A stretch of DNA of 64,000 nucleotides, from positions 33,760 through 97,759 of the forward strand of contig CAZVUY010000002.1 in the NCBI GenBank assembly GCA_964630525.1, in the 5' to 3' direction. Shown piece by piece: positions 5,696-61,050 of the stretch. This DNA comes from an uncultured Candidatus Saccharibacteria bacterium (lineage in GTDB: Bacteria; Patescibacteriota; Minisyncoccia; Phycocordibacterales; WO2-35-19). The position numbers and the translations under genes were made by a program. Below the pieces are notes generated by a model that worked only from the letters and a program-made list of their open reading frames with translations, was not told the origin of the DNA and did no database searches. The first letter of the stretch is position 1; each line of letters begins with the position of its first letter.

Positions 5696-6340
5696 TTCCT
5701 CCCAGTCAGTACAAAGGGTGCCCCTTTGCATGTAAATTCCCTTCGTTTCTTTTTCAAATCCTTCCTTGTTGCCAAAAATATTCGGAAAAATATCTTTTGA
5801 TATTATTGGCAAACTCACATTTCTTAAATTGGTAAAATCTGTAAAACTACTCCATTTATAGTTAATTGGACTATTAGTTAAGCCGTCTTTTACTGGGTTC
5901 ATATGTATATATGAAGATATCCACCTCAGCTGTTGATCTGTTTCAATCCTGACAGCCTTAAATTGATCCTGAAAAACATGACCCACTCTATTGTACTTTT
6001 TATTTATATACATTGAAAAACTGGTACACAATCTTAACATCAAACTCGAGATTGGTTGATTTTTTAATTGCTCTATAAGCAAATGAAAATGATTTGGCAT
6101 TAGACAAAATGCATGTATTTTAAATGAATTTTTATCTGCCGTGAATTTAATTCTTGATTTGGGGAAAAACAACAAATCATGATCCAGTTCTTTTTTATCA
6201 AAACCCAATGCCAAGCCTAATCTAAATAAAAAAGCTCTATTATCGTCATTATCAAGAAAAACTTTTTCTCGGTTATTACCTCTATTATAAACATGATAAA
6301 TAGAGTTCGGTTGAAAATTTTTATAATCTCTTTTTCTCAC
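5690..6340 (-). CDS. REP-associated tyrosine transposase (RayT / IS200-like Y1 HUH transposase)
   Basis: 216 aa with [10 protein letters not shown]...[13 protein letters not shown] (HUH motif) and a downstream Tyr region; flanked by inverted REP palindromes; its stop codon overlaps the gyrA stop by 6 nt. Confidence 0.8.
5712..5728. repeat. REP palindrome copy 1 (CAAAGGG-TGC-CCCTTTG)
   Basis: exact 17-mer; lies inside the RayT C-terminal coding region. Confidence 0.8.
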
Positions 6341-6353
6341 ACTTCAATTATAA

Positions 6354-6370
6354 CAAAGGGTGCCCCTTTG
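6354..6370. repeat. REP palindrome copy 2
   Basis: exact 17-mer ACAAAGGGTGCCCCTTTGT upstream of the RayT start. Confidence 0.8.
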
Positions 6371-6397
6371 TGCTACGTATTCAACAGTTTTTAGGGA

Positions 6398-13410: not shown

Positions 13411-13437
13411 ATTTGGTTTACACTGAGCTTGTCGAAG

Positions 13438-13457
13438 TGTGCTGGGGAGGAGACTTG
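13438..13457. repeat. 20-nt direct repeat of the tRNA-Leu(TAG) 3' end (TGTGCTGGGGAGGAGACTTG)
   Basis: identical to 13595-13614 (T-arm 3' half plus acceptor 3' strand of the minus-strand tRNA-Leu); the two copies bracket 136 bp. Confidence 0.8.
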
Positions 13458-13596
13458 GTCACGCATAAAATTTTGCTAAATTTTTGCTCGACCCCGGCTC
13501 GGCTCGTCAGCCTCCGCCTTTCAAGTCAGTCTTACGCTTTTTTAAATTAAAAAAGCTAGACCCTCCCTAGCATAAAAATTCGCTAGGCTCATTTTG

Positions 13597-13679
13597 TGCT
13601 GGGGAGGAGACTTGAACTCCTAATCCACAAGGGAACTAGTTCCTAAGACTAGCGCGTATACCAATTCCGCCACCCCAGC
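13597..13679 (-). tRNA. tRNA-Leu (anticodon TAG)
   Basis: GCTGGGGTGGCGGAATTGGTATACGCGCTAGTCTTAGGAACTAG + long variable arm + GGAGTTCAAGTCTCCTCCCCAGCA. Confidence 0.85.
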
Positions 13680-21689: not shown

Positions 21690-21845
21690 TGGTGCGCCGG
21701 GAGGGAATTTCTCCCTCGACTCAAAATTTTTTCAGTCAAAAAATTTTGGTCTGGGCACCGGCTCATGGAAATTTTTTGCTAAAAATTTCACATTCCGCCG
21801 TTCGAATCCCTCACGCAAAGCAAGCAGTTGCTTTGCTCCGGCGCA
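21690..21845. repeat. structured repeat element A (~155 nt), homologous to element B at 60893-61050; ends form a 7-bp closing stem
   Basis: ~80% identity to 60893-61050 with compensatory changes in three hairpins; contains core GGAAATTTTTTGCTAAAAATTTC; 5' end TGCGCCGGGAGGGA repeats the tRNA-Tyr 3' end; on the minus strand it ends GAGGGAGAAATTCCCTCCCGGCGCACCA. Confidence 0.6.
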
Positions 21846-21878
21846 CAAAATGAAAACCCCTTTCGGGGATTCATTTTG

Positions 21879-21962
21879 TGCGCCGGGAGGGATTCGAACC
21901 CCCGTAGCCCGATGGGCGACAGATTTACAGTCTGTTGTAATTGACCACTCTACCACCGACGC
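21879..21962 (-). tRNA. tRNA-Tyr (anticodon GTA), long variable arm
   Basis: GCGTCGGTGGTAGAGTGGTCAATTACAACAGACTGTAAATCTGTCGCCCATCGGGCTACGGGGGTTCGAATCCCTCCCGGCGCA; followed by a 24-bp trailer hairpin (21831-21890) that includes the tRNA 3' end. Confidence 0.85.
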
Positions 21963-33486: not shown

Positions 33487-33601
33487 AAATATTAGGAAGT
33501 AATTTTCAAGGAACCTAAGAAATAGCTTAGAGCTTTAAGCTAAAAGCTTAGAGTTTCAAAAATTCGCCGAAAAAGGGAATTTTTGCTAGTATTCCAGTTA
33601 T

Positions 33602-38305: not shown

Positions 38306-40549
38306 TCAAGCTTTTTTGGTTTTGCGCCGACCAAATTTTTTAGGTTCCTTCAGTATTTCTAGGGCGCGAGGAAGGTCGATGCTGTAGACGTTATCTGTTT
38401 TCAGTGAGCGAAAATCTTTTTGGTGGACAATGTAAGGTCCAAATCTGCCAATGTTTGCGCTAATCATCTCGCCAGTTTCCGGGTGTACTCCAAGTTCTCT
38501 CGGTAAACTTAGATAGTGCAAGGCGTCTTCCAGTGTCACCATCTTTGGGTCTTTGTCTTTTGGTATACTAGCTCTTCTTGGCTTCTCTCTCTTTACCTTT
38601 TTGGGCTTTTTTTCTTTTTTATCCGCACTATCAGCTTTTAGCTCTAAGCTCTCAGCTTCTTTGCCACCCAATTGTACATACGGTCCAAACCTGCCATCCA
38701 TCACAAAAACTGGCAAACCACTTTTTGGGTCGATGCCCAAACTTTCGGCCTCTTTAATTTCACTGCCGTCAATATTGCGCATACCCTTACAATCAGGAAA
38801 TCTTTCGCAGCTTAGGAATTTGCCGCTTTTGCCAAGCTTGACTACCATTCTAGAGTCGCAAATTGGACACTTTAGTTTTGGATCAGCTTCACCTAGAGTT
38901 GTGAGCTTGGCGGTTTTTTCTTTCTCTTTTACTTCTTTAATAAATGGTTTGTAAAAATCTCTCAAGGTTGGCTCGTATTCTCGCTTGCCTTCTGCGATCT
39001 CGTCGAGCTCGTCTTCCATCTCAGCGGTGAAGGTGTCGCTGATATATTTTTCAAAATTATCTTCTAGGAAGGTAGAGACCACGTCGCCAGTATCAGTCGG
39101 CTTCAAAGTGCGCCCATCTTTCTCCACATAACCTCTCTCCACAATGGTATTGATGATTGAAGCATAAGTGGATGGTCGGCCGATACCCCTCTTTTCCAGT
39201 TCTTTGATCAAACCAGCCTCGCTGTATCTGTTTGGTGGCTCGGTTTGTTTTTGGGTGCTCTCGATGTTTAGAAGAGAGAGATTGTCCGCCACTTTGACTT
39301 GAGGCAATATGGTGTCTTCACCTTTGGCTTGCGGATCGGCGAGCAGCCAACCTTCTCTTATGACTCTTGAACCGGTAGCAGCAAAGTCAGGTGTCGGCCC
39401 ATTTGTACTTGTTACTTTGGCAGTGATCTTGGTCCGCATCGTGAGAGCATCCTGCATTTGACTGCTCACCGTCCTCTGCCAAATGAGGCGGTAAAGTTTT
39501 TTCTGATCGTCGGTGGTACCGGCTACTTCTTTTTCAAAGTGAGTTGGTCGGATTGCCTCATGAGCTTCTTGAGCGTTTTTGGATTTGTTTTTATAAACTC
39601 TGGTCTGATGTAAATCGGTGGAGAATTTTTTGGTCACTACATTTTTTATTTGAGCGAGAGCGACCTTAGCTAGGCTCAAGCTGTCGGTACGCATGTAGGT
39701 GATATGGCCAGCTTCATAAAGTTTCTGAGCAGCCATCATAGTCCTTTTTGGAGAAAAGCCGAGGCGAGTTGAAGCCGCTTGTTGCAAAGTGGAAGTGGTG
39801 AAGGGTGGTCGAGGTTGGCGTTTGACTTCCGATTCGACCACCTCTTTAACTGACCAACTACCATTTTTAGCAGACTCATAAATCCGATCCGCTTCTTCTT
39901 TGGTTTTTGGCTGTAATTCGCATTCTGTTTCAAAATCCTCTCCTTTGTTGGTGCGAAGTTTGGCACCGATTACAAAAAAAGTTTCCGGCTTGAAAGCTCG
40001 GATTTCTCTTTCTCGTTCCATAAGTATTCGCAAAGCAGGGGATTGGACTCGACCTGCCGAAAGGCCGTAACGCACTTTTTTCCAGATCAGACCAGAGAGG
40101 TCGTAGCCGACTAGTCGGTCAAGGACTCGGCGCGCTTCTTGGGCTTTGCGCAAATTTTGATCAATCGACCGCGGATGTTTGAGAGCCTCCTCGATCGCCT
40201 CTTTGGTGATCTCATGATAAGTCACCCTTTTAATCTTGGAGCCGTTCAAATCACCTTTGATGATTTGGGCAAGATGCCAAGCGATCGCCTCTCCTTCACG
40301 GTCGGGGTCGGTGGCGAGCAGAATCTCATTTGATTTTTGGGCCAACTTCTTTATCTCTTCCACTACTCGTTCTTTGCCTTTGGAAATCTCGTAGTGGGGA
40401 ATGAAGCCGCCTTCGATATCGATCGCCTTTTTGTTGGATTTTGGCAAGTCGCGCACATGACCAACACTTGCGACCACGTTGAAATCAGGACCGACATATT
40501 TGCCGATTGTTTTGGCTTTGGCGGGCGATTCGACGATTAAAAGTTTCAT
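38306..40549 (-). CDS. topA: DNA topoisomerase I
   Basis: 747 aa; TOPRIM MKLLIVESPAKAKTI, active-site Tyr region, C-terminal zinc ribbons (CPICDS...C). Confidence 0.95.
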   Translation of the reverse strand: MKLLIVESPAKAKTIGKYVGPDFNVVASVGHVRDLPKSNKKAIDIEGGFIPHYEISKGKERVVEEIKKLAQKSNEILLATDPDREGEAIAWHLAQIIKGDLNGSKIKRVTYHEITKEAIEEALKHPRSIDQNLRKAQEARRVLDRLVGYDLSGLIWKKVRYGLSAGRVQSPALRILMEREREIRAFKPETFFVIGAKLRTNKGEDFETECELQPKTKEEADRIYESAKNGSWSVKEVVESEVKRQPRPPFTTSTLQQAASTRLGFSPKRTMMAAQKLYEAGHITYMRTDSLSLAKVALAQIKNVVTKKFSTDLHQTRVYKNKSKNAQEAHEAIRPTHFEKEVAGTTDDQKKLYRLIWQRTVSSQMQDALTMRTKITAKVTSTNGPTPDFAATGSRVIREGWLLADPQAKGEDTILPQVKVADNLSLLNIESTQKQTEPPNRYSEAGLIKELEKRGIGRPSTYASIINTIVERGYVEKDGRTLKPTDTGDVVSTFLEDNFEKYISDTFTAEMEDELDEIAEGKREYEPTLRDFYKPFIKEVKEKEKTAKLTTLGEADPKLKCPICDSRMVVKLGKSGKFLSCERFPDCKGMRNIDGSEIKEAESLGIDPKSGLPVFVMDGRFGPYVQLGGKEAESLELKADSADKKEKKPKKVKREKPRRASIPKDKDPKMVTLEDALHYLSLPRELGVHPETGEMISANIGRFGPYIVHQKDFRSLKTDNVYSIDLPRALEILKEPKKFGRRKTKKA

Positions 40550-42332: not shown

Positions 42333-42402
42333 TAAGCTAAGAGCTAAGAGCTTTAAACTCAGAGTTTATACTCTAAGCTTTTAGCTTTAAACTCTAAGCT
42401 TC
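42333..42402. repeat. imperfect palindromic AGCTTAGAG / CTCTAAGCT repeats upstream of serS
   Basis: TAAGAGCTTTAAACTCAGAG...CTCTAAGCTTTTAGCTTTAAACTCTAAGCTT; a similar block lies at 33516-33575 upstream of tRNA-Trp. Confidence 0.5.
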
Positions 42403-43735: not shown

Positions 43736-43889
43736 CCTAGCCCGCAAAATAGCTTCTCTTGCTCGATACGAAAATTTTCTGCTGAAAATTTTCTTGTCCT
43801 CAGCTTTAGAGCAGCTTCCCCGACCGAATCGCTTCGCGACTCGAAGCGGGCGGGCGGAATCTCGCTCGAGAACTATTTTGCGGGCTAGG
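43736..43889. repeat. palindromic repeat element S (154 bp) with perfect 17-bp terminal inverted repeat
   Basis: CCTAGCCCGCAAAATAG ... CTATTTTGCGGGCTAGG; interior GAAAATTTTCTGCTGAAAATTTTC core hairpin and CGCTTCGCGACTCGAAGCG hairpin; homologous to 49781-49897 (inverted) and 48960-49075. Confidence 0.75.
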
Positions 43890-43926
43890 CTACAAAATGA
43901 AAATTTTCTGAGGTATAATATTGACA

Positions 43927-45185: not shown

Positions 45186-45223
45186 ATTATGTCTTATTTT
45201 CCTAAAATAGTTCTTGAGCGAGT

Positions 45224-48284: not shown

Positions 48285-49535
48285 TTGGGTGTTAGGATAT
48301 TTCAAATGAAAAATTTTTGGAACAAAATGAAAAAGTCCCACGACGCTGAAGCTTTGCGGGATAAACCAATACTTTGCCTTGCTCCCATGGCTGATGTGAC
48401 TGATGCGGCATTCCGCTACATTATCGCTAAACACAGCAAAAATGACAAAGGGTGCCCCTTTGTCATTTGGACAGAATTTGTTTCGGCTGATGGGCTTGCT
48501 TTGGCGCCGGAGGAAGGTCGAAGGAAACTTTTGAAAGATTTGGAGTACAGCGAGATCGAACGGCCGATAGTCGCTCAGTTTTTTACTTCTCGGCCGGAAA
48601 ACATGGAGAAGGTAGCTCGGCTAGCGCTTGAACTTGGGTTTGATGGGGTGGATATCAACATGGGCTGTCCGGACAAGAGTATTGAAAAGCAGGGTGCCGG
48701 TGCTGCTCTCATTAAAAATCCTAGTTTGGCCAAAGAAATCATTTTGGCAGCGAGGCGGGGAGTAAATGATGAGATACCAGTTTCGGTCAAGACCCGGATT
48801 GGATATAACAAAGACGAAATCGAAACTTGGATACCAAATTTGCTAGAAGTTTCTCCGGCTGTCATCACCATTCACGCCCGCACTCGCAAAGAAATGTCAA
48901 AGGTAGCCGCAAGGTGGGAGCATGTGAAGCGAGCAGTTGAGATCAGAGATGAAATACAAAATTTTCCTCCACCACATCCCCAGAAATGCACGGATATTTT
49001 TCTGCTGAAAAATTCCTCGTGCTCGCCTCAGTCAGGCTCGCAAGGCATTTCTGGAGATATGGTTTCAGAAAATTTAAGAAAAACCCTGATTTTCGGCAAT
49101 GGGGATGTGGCAAGTGTAGCAGATGCTTATAAAAAAGCGGAGGAAACAGGAGCAGATGGAGTGATGCTCGGCCGAGCCATTTTCGGCAACCCGTTTCTAT
49201 TTGCTGGTTATGAACCGACTTGGCAGGAGAGGTTAGCGGTACTTGTAGAACATACTTTTTTGTTTGAAAAGAAATTTGGTGGGGTAAACCCTGTAGTAGA
49301 TTTTGGCATAGCACAAAGTGCGGATAAAAGATCCAATGCCAAAATTCACTACGGGGTAAAAAGCTTCGCGGTCATGAAAAAACATTTTAAATCATATTTA
49401 TCTTATGTTTCTCACGCCAAAGAAGATCCCGCTTGGCACCAGGCTGTCAAAAATTTACGCGAAGAATTGATGCTGGCTGAGAGTGCCTTAGCTGTGTCCG
49501 AACTGGTAGAAAAATTTTTGCTCAAGTATAATTAA
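48285..49535 (+). CDS. Dus family tRNA-dihydrouridine synthase carrying two in-frame repeat-derived insertions
   Basis: LAPMADVTD...FDGVDINMGCP...SVKTRIG...HARTR Dus TIM-barrel motifs; REP palindrome encodes NDKGCPFVIW (48442-48466); a ~110-bp palindromic repeat-family element encodes an extra ~45 aa (48950-49080); 416 aa versus ~320-350 typical. Confidence 0.8.
   Translation: MGVRIFQMKNFWNKMKKSHDAEALRDKPILCLAPMADVTDAAFRYIIAKHSKNDKGCPFVIWTEFVSADGLALAPEEGRRKLLKDLEYSEIERPIVAQFFTSRPENMEKVARLALELGFDGVDINMGCPDKSIEKQGAGAALIKNPSLAKEIILAARRGVNDEIPVSVKTRIGYNKDEIETWIPNLLEVSPAVITIHARTRKEMSKVAARWEHVKRAVEIRDEIQNFPPPHPQKCTDIFLLKNSSCSPQSGSQGISGDMVSENLRKTLIFGNGDVASVADAYKKAEETGADGVMLGRAIFGNPFLFAGYEPTWQERLAVLVEHTFLFEKKFGGVNPVVDFGIAQSADKRSNAKIHYGVKSFAVMKKHFKSYLSYVSHAKEDPAWHQAVKNLREELMLAESALAVSELVEKFLLKYN
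48446..48462. repeat. REP palindrome copy 3 (in frame inside dus); extended 25-nt palindrome 48442-48466
   Basis: ATGACAAAGGG-TGC-CCCTTTGTCAT; core identical to the RayT-flanking REPs. Confidence 0.8.
48960..49075. repeat. palindromic repeat element D (in frame inside dus)
   Basis: terminal IR CAGAAATGC...GCATTTCTG; interior TTTTCTGCTGAAAA...CCTCAG homologous to element S. Confidence 0.65.
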
Positions 49536-49780: not shown

Positions 49781-49897
49781 GACTTACGCAAAAATAGTTC
49801 TTGAGCGAGATTCCGGAAGCTGCCGGAAAGCTGAGGACAAGGAAATTTTTAGCAAAAAATTTCCGTATCGAGCGAAAGAAACTATTTTGGAGTAAGT
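49781..49897. repeat. palindromic repeat element C (117 bp), inverted orientation relative to S
   Basis: GACTTACGCAAAAATAGTTCTTGAGCGAG ... CTATTTTGGAGTAAGTC; reverse complement aligns with element S except for a 38-bp internal deletion; contains GGAAATTTTTAGCAAAAAATTTCC. Confidence 0.75.
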
Positions 49898-55685: not shown

Positions 55686-57071
<1,386 letters not shown>

Positions 57072-57103
57072 GAAAGTCAGAAAATAAAAAGTAAAAAATA
57101 GAT

Positions 57104-57367
57104 ATGAATTTAAAAGTTGTGACACCAGACGGAGTAGTTTGGAATGCAGAAGTGGATTTCGTCAATCTCAAGACGACTCTTGGCGAGATCACTGTTTTAC
57201 CCAAACACATACCACTAATAACAACTCTAGAATTTGGGATGGTACGGGTCCGGAGCGATGGTCGCGATTTTCGAGCCGAATGTTCGGGTGGCGTGCTTGA
57301 GGTTAAAAAAGACAGTCAGGCGATAATCATAACTGAACATTGCTCCAAGTTTCTCGCTGAAGAATAA
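57104..57367 (+). CDS. atpC: F0F1 ATP synthase subunit epsilon (beta-sandwich domain only)
   Basis: 87 aa, MNLKVVTPDGVVWNAEVDFV start typical of epsilon; lacks C-terminal helical hairpin. Confidence 0.8.
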   Translation: MNLKVVTPDGVVWNAEVDFVNLKTTLGEITVLPKHIPLITTLEFGMVRVRSDGRDFRAECSGGVLEVKKDSQAIIITEHCSKFLAEE

Positions 57368-57374
57368 GAAATTT

Positions 57375-57971
57375 TTAGATTTGATTAGGCTGCGGAATAA
57401 ATTTGAAAGACTGAAGAAGCGGTTCAAAATCGCGATAAAGATTTGAGTTTGTGTCTAAGTAGGCTCCACTGATCACATACATGTTTTCTCCGTGAGCGAC
57501 CACTATGTTGTTTGACCGGTAGAGCCCGTCAGCAGAATATCTGATCGCATTTGCACCACCAAGGACCGTCTCTTCCATGTCTCCTAGTTCAAGATTGATA
57601 TTGGTCCACTCTATATTTTCGCTAGACCAAACCAGCGGCCACTGTTTTTTAGTGTTTTTGACTACGTGAATAGTGATGGTGGCCGGCCCTTCGCCGAATT
57701 CTCCATTGTTTTGCAAGCCCACCTCATCAGTTTTTTGCATCAAGACCAATGTTTTTAGTAAGTTTGGATTGGTGCTGACTGTTTGAGGGTCTTTTTCGAT
57801 CAGGGTGTAACCCTCTGGTTCGATGCGATATTGAAATTCAAAACCGAGTTCCGGGCTGGAAAAAGTTTGATAAGTAGCGACCGTTTTGTTGGCACCATTT
57901 TTAGGCTTTAGAAACCAGTATCCAGCAGACGCAACAAGCAAAACAAGAATAATGACAAATATTTTTTTCAT
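57375..57971 (-). CDS. hypothetical exported/anchored protein
   Basis: 198 aa, N-terminal signal/TM. Confidence 0.45.
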   Translation of the reverse strand: MKKIFVIILVLLVASAGYWFLKPKNGANKTVATYQTFSSPELGFEFQYRIEPEGYTLIEKDPQTVSTNPNLLKTLVLMQKTDEVGLQNNGEFGEGPATITIHVVKNTKKQWPLVWSSENIEWTNINLELGDMEETVLGGANAIRYSADGLYRSNNIVVAHGENMYVISGAYLDTNSNLYRDFEPLLQSFKFIPQPNQI

Positions 57972-58015
57972 GACCCAATATTAGCAAATTTTTATGATCT
58001 CTGACAAATAAAACC

Positions 58016-58492
58016 TTACTTCATCACTGCATAGGTGAAGAGTACGCTAAATTTTTTGCACCAAATAACGACAGTCTGATAATCCTCTGTACCCACTGGC
58101 AATTCATAATTTTGGTTGCCTTGGGTGCCTTTGAGTAGACCCAAATTAACAAAGTCGCCGAGACTTTCAATATCATTGGTTGGAGCAGAGGAATTTGATA
58201 GATATACATACAGATCCGGGCCGCTGGTCACGCTAAAATCTTCGAGCCGGATAAACTGTTTGCCATCGACTTCTACCAGCTTTGCTGTACCCGATCCCTT
58301 GTGAATAAAATCTATTTCTCCGAATGTTCCCGAAGCCAAAGTTTTCGATTCGCTCAGCGTCCCTTGCGTCTGGTTAGTTGGGGTCGGTAGAGTTTCTTGC
58401 ACTTCTGTTTTAATAAAATAAGTATAAACGCCACTCCAGTATACGAAAAATCCGATCGCCAATATCACCAAAACTAAAATAATCTTTTTCAT
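58016..58492 (-). CDS. DM13-domain-like membrane-anchored protein
   Basis: 158 aa; GTFGEIDFIHKGSGTAKLVEVDG pattern resembles DM13. Confidence 0.5.
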   Translation of the reverse strand: MKKIILVLVILAIGFFVYWSGVYTYFIKTEVQETLPTPTNQTQGTLSESKTLASGTFGEIDFIHKGSGTAKLVEVDGKQFIRLEDFSVTSGPDLYVYLSNSSAPTNDIESLGDFVNLGLLKGTQGNQNYELPVGTEDYQTVVIWCKKFSVLFTYAVMK

Positions 58493-58593
58493 TTTTTAAG
58501 GTTTGTAGTTTTTTATAAATTAAAAATCTTTTATTTCTATATTTTCCGGCAAATCTCTTTCAGAAACCTCAATCACTTCTAATTGCTATCTCT

Positions 58594-59037
58594 TTATTTT
58601 TGGTCTTTGATTAGGCTGCCAACATACTCCTCAAATTCTTTCATGTCTTCACTACAATTTTCCAAATGCTCGTAGTTATCTGATACGAGTTTAGAGTATT
58701 GAAGTAGTCTGTCCCTCACTTCATCGGACATAGGTTTAGCCCATTCTGTTTTCCAGATCTCTCCTTCCACCTCGTCAATCTCGCCTTTATCTATCCACTT
58801 GGTGTGTCTCTTATTTAGAAATTTACCATCTTTAAGTTCAATTACATCCCATTCAGCGGTTGGATTAATTTCTTCTTGGTTATCTGCAATGTAGTCTTTT
58901 TTATCAGTAAGAACTTGTTTAGTAATTCTCTGACCTTTTATAATGTAGTCAAAAGAAATTGCCTCCTTATCGTTCAAGCCAACACTGATAAAGAAAGTGT
59001 TGGAGGGACTAGGGTTGTAATCTACATCTATATACAT
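58594..59037 (-). CDS. hypothetical acidic protein
   Basis: 147 aa, AT-rich. Confidence 0.45.
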   Translation of the reverse strand: MYIDVDYNPSPSNTFFISVGLNDKEAISFDYIIKGQRITKQVLTDKKDYIADNQEEINPTAEWDVIELKDGKFLNKRHTKWIDKGEIDEVEGEIWKTEWAKPMSDEVRDRLLQYSKLVSDNYEHLENCSEDMKEFEEYVGSLIKDQK

Positions 59038-59045
59038 TCTGTTTA

Positions 59046-59375
59046 TTATTCTCTGGTTAGTTTGAAATCAACCATTTTCACAATAGTATCTGGGGTGACT
59101 TTGTCACCGTAGTACTTTCTGTATGTCTCATACATTTTTTCATCGCTTTCAAATTTTTCGTGCCCCTCAAAATCGCTTTCTTCCAAATCTTTGAGTTTCT
59201 TTTCTTCTATTTTGGTTATTACTGCTTTGGCAAATTCTTCTTTTGTTTCCCAATTCAAAAGAGATAATTCGTCTCCTTCTTTCAAATCTTTATCGTCAAA
59301 CAATCTCCATGTACAAGTTTTTTCTCCTCTCAGCACAAGTGGGATTAAATAAGGTCTAAATTTAACTGTTTTCAT
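59046..59375 (-). CDS. ASCH-domain-like small protein
   Basis: KTVKFRPYLIPLVLRGEKTCTWR N-terminus resembles ASCH/PUA-like fold. Confidence 0.5.
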   Translation of the reverse strand: MKTVKFRPYLIPLVLRGEKTCTWRLFDDKDLKEGDELSLLNWETKEEFAKAVITKIEEKKLKDLEESDFEGHEKFESDEKMYETYRKYYGDKVTPDTIVKMVDFKLTRE

Positions 59376-59479
59376 AAAACTAGTCTAAACGAATTTTTTA
59401 TAAAAGAAAACCCCCTAGAATAAAGAGGTGAGTTGGTTATCTAATTTATCACTTCAGAACTAATTTATTCAAAACAAAA

Positions 59480-59815
59480 AGCCCTCGCATTCCCCGAATG
59501 GGTACTAGCTTGGGCTGGGTGGGTTACAGACTATATTCGTGCTGTTGAGGGAGAAGTCTGGATTCCCTCGCACTAGCTCACTGGGTGAGCAAAGAACTGG
59601 TCGGGGTAAGTAATAGTTTAGGTTCCTATCACTACGACTTACCCCACGGAAGACAGAAAACGGAAAACAGCATATTGTCGGTCAACTCCTTTAGGAACCT
59701 ATCAGGAATATCACGACTCACCCCTGTCGTATCACTCTAAGACCGAAGGACGTCTTTCGAGAGCTCGATTTGCGCTTACTGCATTGCCAAGGTCTAAATC
59801 GAGATGAATAACCCT
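59480..59815 (-). ncRNA. candidate ~335-nt structured RNA with own promoter and terminators; identity unknown
   Basis: minus-strand TTGACA-N16-TATACT (plus coords 59822-59852); upstream terminator (59890-59915) ends the preceding gene; GC-rich stems (GGGGTAAGT...ACTTACCCC; AGGTTCCT/AGGAACCT); U-rich tail CTTTTTGTTTTG near 59480; no ORF >20 aa. Confidence 0.35.
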
Positions 59816-59932
59816 GGCACCATTAGTATAACAAATCGGCATTTTTTGTCAATCATAAAACACATTTTGTAAATGTCAAAAGCAGAAAAGCCTTATAAAA
59901 TAAGGGTATTTTAGGAAGTTAGAAAAAATGAG

Positions 59933-60241
59933 TTAAGATTTGGTAATCTTCCTTTTTACAGAATCAACAAACAACCTGAAAGCGGGTCGTTTTTCCTTTT
60001 CGTAAATGATTTTAACTCCAAGCAGATGACCTTTAGGACAAGATAGGTCTTTTTTCAGAATAGAAACTTTAGGCTCCATAATTCTATCTATATACATTCT
60101 CCTAAGATTCCCTGGCCCATCTTTTTGGTAGAGGCAAATATTTGCCCCACACTTCTCGCAAAACATTCTTAGTAGCCTAGAGTAGCCTCCCCTGGCTTGT
60201 TTATATTTATCTCTTTTAAAGACAACTTTGTTCATATCCAA
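59933..60241 (-). CDS. hypothetical small Cys-containing (zinc-ribbon-like) protein
   Basis: 102 aa; CEKCG...C...CPKGH spacing. Confidence 0.45.
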   Translation of the reverse strand: MDMNKVVFKRDKYKQARGGYSRLLRMFCEKCGANICLYQKDGPGNLRRMYIDRIMEPKVSILKKDLSCPKGHLLGVKIIYEKEKRPAFRLFVDSVKRKITKS

Positions 60242-60892: not shown

Positions 60893-61050
60893 GCTCCGGG
60901 AGCAGGGGGTATCTCCCTCGACTCAAAAATTTGTCGGCCACAAATTTTTGGTCTAGGCACCGGCTCGCTAAATTTTGTGCTCAAAATTTTCAGCTCCGCC
61001 GTTCGATCCCTGACGAAAGTGCAATTCAATGCACTTTCTCTCCTCGGAGC
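60893..61050. repeat. structured repeat element B (copy of element A)
   Basis: aligns with 21694-21844 at ~80% identity with compensatory hairpin changes (CAAAGCAAG..CTTGCTTTG vs GAAAGTGCA..TGCACTTTC); closing stem GCTCCG/CGGAGC. Confidence 0.6.

Follow-up and report, generated by a model that had tools for sequence, protein, structure and literature searches.

A dispersed palindromic DNA element of Patescibacteria with a conserved core and copy-specific arms

The 64,000-nucleotide stretch of contig CAZVUY010000002.1 analysed here (the window), from an uncultured Candidatus Saccharibacteria bacterium, contains four palindromic elements, designated S, C, D and E, and one solo element end, which together form a single family. 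[quoted passage not shown]

The element family inside and outside the window

Comparison of S with C revealed complementarity over 75 nt at 87% and over a further 25 nt at 96%, indicating that they are one element in opposite orientations, and D was found to have the AT-rich hairpin and the next ~15 nt in common with both. The core motif occurs six times in the window against 0.02 expected, and the end motif AAAATAGTTCTYGAGCGAG occurs three times (in S, C and the solo end) against none expected. The folding of S, C and D was far better than that of shuffled sequences (z = -4.2 to -7.7). A covariance model (R1), for which the sole input was D and the D-type copies of other genomes, scored D at 93 bits, C at 40.2 bits (E=1.4e-7), E at 30.5 bits (E=3.5e-5) and S at 24 bits (E=1e-3), and picked up two further elements, A and B, merely as an isolated hairpin. 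Rfam scans of the window at the gathering threshold passed only tRNAs; at E up to 5, no match overlapped S, C or D. Nothing credible lay over A or B. A terminator scan of the window listed none of S, C and D.

Element S (43736-43889, + strand) is intergenic, lying between serS and an ftsQ-like gene. Its outer, copy-specific inverted repeat is perfect (CCTAGCCCG, 43736-43744, with CGGGCTAGG, 43881-43889) and stands outside two conserved ends, CAAAATAG (43745-43752) and CTATTTTG (43873-43880), between which are found a TGCT-loop hairpin (43770-43793) and an extra hairpin module (43821-43856, 36 nt). Element C (49781-49897, - strand) belongs to the same S/C subtype and is inverted with respect to S; it lies between a 74-aa open reading frame (ORF) and the next gene, with an outer inverted repeat GACTTAC../..GTAAGTC and a TGCT-loop hairpin at 49841-49864. 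Element D (48959-49075, + strand), which defines the D subtype, lies in frame in the ORF of a tRNA-dihydrouridine synthase (Dus; 48285-49535). Its arms of 31 bp (48959-48989 and 49045-49075) flank a core at 48990-49044, and its translation reads ..NFPPPHPQKCTDIFLLKNSSCSPQSGSQGISGDMVSENL... Element E (13437-13533, + strand; covariance-model match at 13448-13533) has a D-like core and adjoins tRNA-Leu(tag). The solo S/C-type end AAAATAGTTCTTGAGCGAG (45204-45222, + strand) is located immediately 5′ of the ATG of a ClpB-like gene, in an intergenic region that measures 38 nt in the window and 3 nt in the syntenic contig L123.

The family was traced outside the window by scanning a public collection, with one genome per species, for a 27-nt degenerate pattern covering S, C and D. 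At least 117 loci were found, and several genomes had multiple copies. Among the matches listed, all record titles that name a taxon name Patescibacteria, while some say just 'uncultured bacterium'; the lineages named are Yonath-, Zambryski-, Nomura-, Taylor-, Wildermuth-, Nealson- and Moranbacteria, Paceibacterota and Minisyncoccia. The window itself comes from a patescibacterial genome of the Parcubacteria/Paceibacteria type, the named relatives being Zambryskibacteria and 'Patescibacteria group'. Over related loci R1 gave 122 matches in 774 kb, with up to 3 per 8 kb, and it also recovered more diverged copies at 30-75 bits; in the 64-kb window there are 4 copies, and element size is about 90-190 bp. 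The viral contigs searched with the core pattern gave no match, and thus no sign of a phage vector. A limited search of the searchable literature, in which most subscription journals were not covered, found no prior description in Patescibacteria or the Candidate Phyla Radiation (CPR).

The dominant form among the matches listed is the D type, with a core of ~55 nt (ACGGATATTTTTyTGCTrAAAAATTCCTCGTGCTC-GCGCC(A)GTCGCGC-TCsCAAG) that comprises two hairpins: one has an AT-rich stem closed by a TGCT loop, the other a GC stem of 4 bp bearing a C(A)GTC loop. The core is carried at the tip of a stem, the arms of which abut it at fixed offsets and extend over 17-62 bp (118 listed copies). The arm sequence differs at every locus, and the arms are perfect in 22 of the 118; as a control, left flanks paired with the wrong right flanks gave background scores only. 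Within the arms the inner 8-10 bp are semi-conserved (TTTTnrGAG/CTCynAAAA), and the outer 10-50 bp are unique to each locus. The S/C subtype is rarer, being found also at L019 and L050, and has longer conserved arms ending in AAAATAG/CTATTTT with a unique repeat of 8-11 bp outermost. Hybrids are also present, in which S/C-type ends surround a D core.

These results bear on an earlier note on the same DNA, which had described S, C and D as a repeat family with an AT-rich core hairpin. The motif counts, the S/C complementarity and the R1 matches establish the family as genuine, and the three sequences lie where the note had placed them, with the start of D shifted to 48959. It had also seen that the outer stems vary among copies yet remain complementary, which agrees with flanking arms that differ per locus and covary; that one copy is in frame in a coding sequence, which is D; and that A, B and a variant beside tRNA-Leu are kin, which accords with the score of the tRNA-Leu copy (E) and with the two loops that A and B share with the core. 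Several of its dimensions required correction. The inverted repeat of D is present, but measures 31 bp and not 9 bp; the solo terminus at the ClpB-like gene start is present, but at 45204-45222 and not 45196-45222; the extra module of S is present, but comprises 36 nt and not 38 bp; and a partial GAAAATTTTCTG is present, but at 43899-43910, and may be due to chance. The note had named copies confined to the window, with no structure conserved elsewhere, as the outcome that would speak against it, and had suggested a genome-wide motif or covariance-model search, a mapping relative to genes and a comparison of insertions between relatives. The search yielded many further copies with conserved structure (at least 117 loci elsewhere, 122 model matches, and covariation); the mapping placed copies between genes and, for about a third (38 of 118 listed), within ORFs; and the comparison found S absent in five and C absent in three syntenic relatives.

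Base pairing, gene context and insertion sites

Pairing was scored over the three-helix structure in 99 D-type copies. Here 91% of cells were paired, compared with 71% in shuffles and at most 55% with slid partners, and double-change cells numbered 601 compared with 171 in shuffles. Among the listed copies, 83 close the TGCT loop with C-G, 34 with T-A and 1 with a mixed pair; this hairpin (P2) holds an unpaired T. The 4-bp stem (P3) also covaries: enclosing a C(A)GTC or CGAC loop, it occurs in many Watson-Crick combinations. G.U on the core strand was no commoner than other mismatches, and the covariation is almost purely Watson-Crick. Arm mismatches on this strand are asymmetric (A:C 99, C:T/T:C 108, G:T 23), and the asymmetry is alike in the intergenic, sense and antisense subsets.

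Covariation of this strength could indicate that the core is a functional structured RNA (cis-regulatory, protein-binding, ribozyme or small RNA), the stem being kept by RNA pairing. Consistent with such a role, the unpaired letters are highly conserved, even between same-site Dus copies of distant species; the TGCT and C(A)GTC loops are common to the A/B family, where the loop orientation is fixed; and the mismatch asymmetry is compatible with tolerance of G.U and G.A on the minus strand. Nevertheless we judge an RNA function to be quite unlikely. No Rfam match was obtained even at E up to 5, and G.U was not enriched over other mismatches on the core strand. Copies occur within coding regions of unrelated housekeeping genes, where, among the 38 inside long ORFs (118 listed copies), 20 are sense and 18 antisense, and close relatives exist with or without the element and with nothing else changed. 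Watson-Crick-only pairing, equal numbers of sense and antisense copies and the rarity of T-runs argue for a process acting at the DNA level and not for selection on an RNA stem. On these grounds the interpretation offered in the earlier note, selection for a long hairpin as in ERIC, Correia or BOX elements, found no support in the form given. The consensus of those elements is full-length and conserved, whereas here a conserved core is joined to unique arms, and RPEs are closer.

The gene order serS, ftsQ-like gene, 133-aa ORF, ClpB-like gene, Dus, small ORF and bPH is kept in five related contigs. The elements behave as insertions, present or absent between such syntenic relatives. S is absent from L002, L003, L005, L123 and L124, where the intergenic region measures 7-72 bp compared with 198 bp in the window, and C is absent from L123, L124 and L246. 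The Dus of L245 is 81% identical, and its N-terminal part contains a D-type copy in antisense orientation that is missing from both the window and L246. No target-site duplication was found flanking 32 copies with near-perfect arms, and D-type copies in general have no third arm copy nearby, E being the exception. No element-associated ORF was seen in the loci inspected.

The copies inside genes use all five stop-free core frames, giving the peptides TDIFLLKNSSCS, GYFSAEKFLVL, LGSATARARGIFQQKNIR, WERDGASTRNFLAKKYP and CE.RRREHEEFFSKKISV. Their host genes are those for PheT (6), TsaD (5), Dus (3), UvrD, RF-1/2, an IscS-type protein, phosphoglucomutase, MnmA, two aminoacyl-tRNA synthetases, DnaN and others. 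The mean number of open frames is 0.9 for intergenic and 2.7 for genic copies; thus only stop-free insertions seem to survive in genes. In the AlphaFold model of Dus, the D peptide (residues 216-250) is a loop with no secondary structure and a predicted local distance difference test score (pLDDT) below 50, situated between a helix and a barrel strand. In-gene copies fall, in either orientation, in frame in surface loops of housekeeping proteins, and are predicted to read through as disordered peptides. Selection for open core frames was also considered and set aside, as the 5 of 6 frames found open are not significant (p about 0.06 versus shuffles, 0.15 versus genomic 54-mers).

Outside genes, S, C and many other copies lie just past stop codons, and for 16 of 65 non-coding copies a neighbouring ORF extends at its 3′ end into an arm. 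C is trailed by TTATTTTTTT. These features would suit intrinsic terminators or mRNA-stabilising hairpins that spread through their usefulness at gene ends. We consider this explanation highly improbable, because, of 46 intergenic copies, just 5 are followed by a T-run on the core strand and 2 on the opposite one, a third of the copies fall within ORFs, and termination does not need a conserved core. The gene-end overlaps involve the left arm in 11 cases and the right arm in 5, and were not decisive.

Certain protein loops are occupied again and again. At the Dus site of D, many homologues (56-83% identity) have the element and others lack it, and a second, N-terminal Dus site holds it in antisense orientation in P0003, P0016 and P0046. 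Between same-site Dus copies of species whose proteins are only ~55% identical, the unpaired core letters are identical. In TsaD (proteins 62-85% identical to the query), the loop between ..GGPEIS.LA and LPRPM contains either this element or one of at least five other palindromic peptide families; short 'empty' forms also occur, as do remnants comprising one arm and the edge of the core. The PheT site is likewise occupied by varied palindromic families.

Across these Dus, TsaD and PheT loops, at least five or six other families of palindrome-derived peptides recur, examples being ..LRQAQGER.., ..PLLRGGLKSRGGCIPPPPSGTPQEE.., ..LPLTKGEAGRGF..ILPLVRGG.., ..GSLAQAVEPSTSKKSSKVLLRADG.. and ..DAFAQVLGSP..DHSQKHTG... 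The many palindromic peptides at the same loops indicate that several other element families behave alike. Some PheT homologues stop exactly at the site (P0308, P0323, P0334-P0336, P0338, P0342 and P0348) and others start exactly there (P0324, P0350 and P0357); these proteins may reflect assembly breaks at the repeat or split genes. The Dus gene of the window holds a further in-frame palindrome, element F (49281-49360), of 72 nt with the inverted repeat CCCTGTAGTAGATTTTGGCAT/ATGCCAAAATTCACTACGGGG. It is unrelated to D, is flanked by an 8-bp direct repeat GGGGTAAA, is precisely missing in two close relatives, L245 and L246, and in the Dus model covers the low-confidence residues 320-342; it looks like a classical MITE with target duplication. 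In addition, the N-terminal part of Dus includes, in frame, a small perfect hairpin, ATGACAAAGGGTGCCCCTTTGTCAT (48442-48466), exactly where L245 has its D-type copy. The 19-mer of ATGACAAAGGGTGCCCCTTTGTCAT is found again at 5711-5729 and 6353-6371, giving 6 strand matches against 0.01 expected.

The occupation of TsaD, PheT and both Dus loops by many palindromic families, as if hairpins attract insertions, raises the question of whether S, C and D are themselves classical MITEs mobilised by a transposase. The inner 8-10 bp (AAAATAG/CTATTTT in S/C) would then be the true terminal inverted repeats, and the outer arms would be pre-existing palindromes that had been targeted at their centre or loop (terminators, other palindromes or tRNA T-arms). 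The inner arm consensus of the D type and the conserved ends of the S/C subtype fit such an arrangement, two different families at the TsaD site share outer arm letters, and orientation is mildly biased with local GC skew (68/100), as for users of single-stranded DNA. However, there is no target-site duplication, perfect palindromes of 20-40 bp are improbable beforehand in coding regions, and the arms are AT-rich and not terminator-like, with T-runs after only 7 of 46 intergenic copies. Moreover, the arms of the D-type copy in L245 bear no relation to the small palindrome that the window has at this site, and no partner transposase was found, none having been systematically sought. A classical MITE is therefore possible and, to our minds, doubtful.

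Origin of the arms and the tRNA-linked family

Three observations connect the arms with nearby sequence. In TsaD, as judged from protein alignment, the outer letters of one arm match insert-free homologues, which lack the inner 8 bp, the core and the outer part of the other arm. In the Dus of L123 the whole left arm is kept, and the core and right arm are missing. The shared arm is 5′ of the core in both genes. Beside tRNA genes, the left arm of E (13437-13457) is a direct repeat of the tRNA-Leu 3′ end (at 13594-13620), and the left arm of A is a direct repeat of the 3′ end of its neighbouring tRNA.

Template switching between the arms of inverted repeats perfects and expands these arms, inverts spacers and mimics compensatory change (PMC8794818, PMC8604942, PMC13100816, PMC7202029). 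Such a process is in keeping with the features described above: pairing by Watson-Crick pairs only, arms of variable length and no target duplication. The arms of the family would not be recognition sequences; they would be made and kept complementary by intramolecular template switching during replication, with quasi-palindrome extension or homogenisation copying one flank to the other side of the hairpin. The core and its loops would be the part recognised by some mobilising or binding factor.

Elements A and B represent a related family that is linked to tRNA genes. A (21692-21846, + strand) is convergent with tRNA-Tyr (21878-21962, - strand) and repeats the tRNA 3′ end; it has a closing stem GTGCGCCGG/CCGGCGCAC, a CAGTC-loop hairpin, a TGCT-loop hairpin (21767-21789) and a GTTCGAATCC motif. 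B (60893-61050, + strand) adjoins the 3′ end of a protein-coding gene and that gene's terminator hairpin, in place of a tRNA. The two are 76% identical over 89 nt and fold as multi-hairpin structures in a copy-specific stem (z = -5.6 to -7.7). A metagenome scan for two conserved junctions, GGCACCGGCTC and TCCGCCGTTCGA, returned at least 120 loci (L125-L244); among the matches listed ~87 are true A/B members, and the rest are GC-rich chance matches. In the members, two hairpins covary between AT-rich and GC-rich stems around the loops C(A/C)GTC and TGCT, which are both loops of the D-type core in reversed order. The apical loop is TGCT in 52 of 87 and the flipped AGCA in only 2. Of the members, 61 have a tRNA gene no more than 250 nt away, and in all of these it is downstream on the opposite strand, 31-190 nt off, with 15 tRNA types represented. 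The 5′ end of the element repeats the tRNA 3′ end, exactly over at least 15 nt in 33 of 56, and the repeat usually stops in the T-loop (..GGATTCG). The insert is ~130-190 bp long and without an ORF. The fixed orientation and fixed TGCT loop argue for strand-specific recognition, and the family may be either a miniature tRNA-targeting insert or a functional RNA.

The tRNA-Tyr locus illustrates the arrangement. Here an inverted copy mirrors the tRNA 3′ end together with its A-rich trailer and a GC hairpin; A lies beyond that copy, and its other arm repeats the tRNA end. This direct-inverted-direct layout would be the expected product of fold-back synthesis. An origin of A by reverse transcription from a tRNA primer was considered, as the CCA found in A is absent from the tRNA-Tyr gene, and was rejected, since other loci repeat the tRNA trailer without CCA. 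Repeats that extend into the trailer in this manner indicate duplication at the DNA level. With regard to the tRNA genes themselves, in the regions 21838-21900 and 13560-13620, tRNA-Tyr and tRNA-Leu have no encoded CCA and a common trailer, ACAAAATGA. A 17-bp inverted repeat that surrounds a CCCC-loop-GGGG hairpin includes the acceptor 3′ strand and trailer of tRNA-Tyr, such that a terminator palindrome reaches into the tRNA.

A bolder proposal is that the D/S/C and A/B families are both 'hairpin parasites' that spread and lengthen by template switching (copy-choice and fold-back) without a dedicated transposase, or else that the three-way-junction tip binds a Patescibacteria-wide ssDNA or RNA factor that marks tRNA ends and permissive protein loops. 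We offer it tentatively, as something less than likely.

Several observations weigh against a selfish element with template-switched arms, which we still favour. That one arm is native is a rule drawn from two gene sites; PheT is too variable to read, and L245 shows no shared arm. The identity of the unpaired core letters between same-site Dus copies is unexpected for a neutral selfish insert and calls for selection in place, a hot spot that is invaded over and over, or recombinational transfer. The arm mismatch asymmetry (A:C 99 versus G:T 23) could reflect tolerance of G.U on the opposite strand. The orientation of the A/B TGCT loop is fixed (52 versus 2) among members ascertained independently of this loop, suggesting strand-specific recognition, and no mobilising enzyme has been identified. 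Finally, the search pattern prescribed 27 nt of the core, such that part of the invariance is by construction; the 9 nt before the pattern and ~20 nt after it were unconstrained by the search and are nevertheless conserved.

Three further features of the window were recorded. A AGCTTWAGAGCTTTAAGCT-type motif occurs in direct and inverted copies upstream of tRNA-Trp and serS (33518-33562, 38627-38659 and 42339-42402), and may act as a promoter or operator or else represent a further family of small repeats. Between 8815 and 10107 there are four copies of an 82-nt segment (61-72% identity, spacing 298-512 nt), which look like the conserved ends of tandem paralogous small genes. Cumulative GC skew climbs across the window and turns at ~58 kb (about 56000-60000), with a dip in GC to 37%; the turn may mark a replication origin or terminus.

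Significance and comparison with known systems

Palindromes that code for protein have been treated as a curiosity of Rickettsia. Their occurrence across Patescibacteria suggests that they are a recurrent outcome of genome reduction, with several families repeatedly occupying the same loops of essential enzymes (TsaD, PheT and Dus). An architecture with a conserved tip and a copy-specific stem sets the recognised part apart from the part that is only paired, and offers a natural system for studying palindrome growth by template switching. The elements add low-complexity peptides to conserved proteins and serve as a lineage marker, and, judging from the few cases inspected, such repeats may partly account for the variable lengths, split gene calls and broken contigs of CPR metagenome bins. 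If either the hairpin-parasite or the factor-binding proposal were true, the elements would be an undescribed source of protein-loop variation in the essential genes of reduced genomes.

The elements lack the target-site duplication of classical MITEs and do not conform to REP/REPINs, Rfam RNAs or intrinsic terminators. Correia/NEMIS, ERIC, BOX, RUP and REP/REPIN elements have family-wide terminal repeats and usually a target duplication (TA in Correia), or, for REP, a GTAG motif and an associated RAYT, and they are essentially extragenic. Like these bacterial MITEs and intergenic palindromes, the elements described here are short, non-coding, hairpin-forming and dispersed, with some copies at gene ends; unlike them, they have copy-specific arms, no duplication was found, and a third of the copies are intragenic. 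The core also lacks the GTAG of REP/REPIN sequences. IS200/IS605-derived elements have imperfect sub-terminal hairpins, neither terminal repeats nor a duplication, and a strong strand bias relative to replication; on these points the elements described here show no duplication and an unpaired T in P2, along with two dissimilar hairpins, long arms and an orientation that follows GC skew at only 68:32.

Elements that integrate at tRNA genes, such as tyrosine-recombinase islands and small remnants of the cis-mobilizable element (CIME) kind, leave direct repeats of the tRNA 3′ end. A similar direct repeat, typically ending in the T-loop, bounds the inserts of A, E and the A/B family. In contrast to those elements, the inserts here are only ~130-190 bp, with no integrase, a covarying hairpin core and an extra inverted copy of the tRNA end. 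Template-switch mutagenesis would explain the 'compensatory' Watson-Crick changes, the variable arms, the arms copied from a neighbour and the occasional inversion of a loop; it has been described for single loci and not for the spread of a repeat family, and its role here is inferred.

The closest likeness is to the RPEs. RPE-1 to RPE-10 of Rickettsia (Ogata et al. 2000, as summarised in PMC10969869) are palindromic, about 100-150 bp long and present in many copies in a small genome, often in frame in housekeeping genes, with no known transposase. The elements described here resemble them in size, in being multicopy, in lying both between genes and in frame in unrelated housekeeping genes, and in being compatible with the protein fold. 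They differ in that an RPE consensus spans the arms, whereas here only the ~55-nt tip and a few inner bp are conserved and the arms are unique. The hosts are Patescibacteria and not Rickettsia, and the elements are set apart from the RPE consensus by description; in addition, many palindrome families here share loop sites, and a tRNA-linked sister family exists. The elements work like RPEs, yet are not members of the RPE family.

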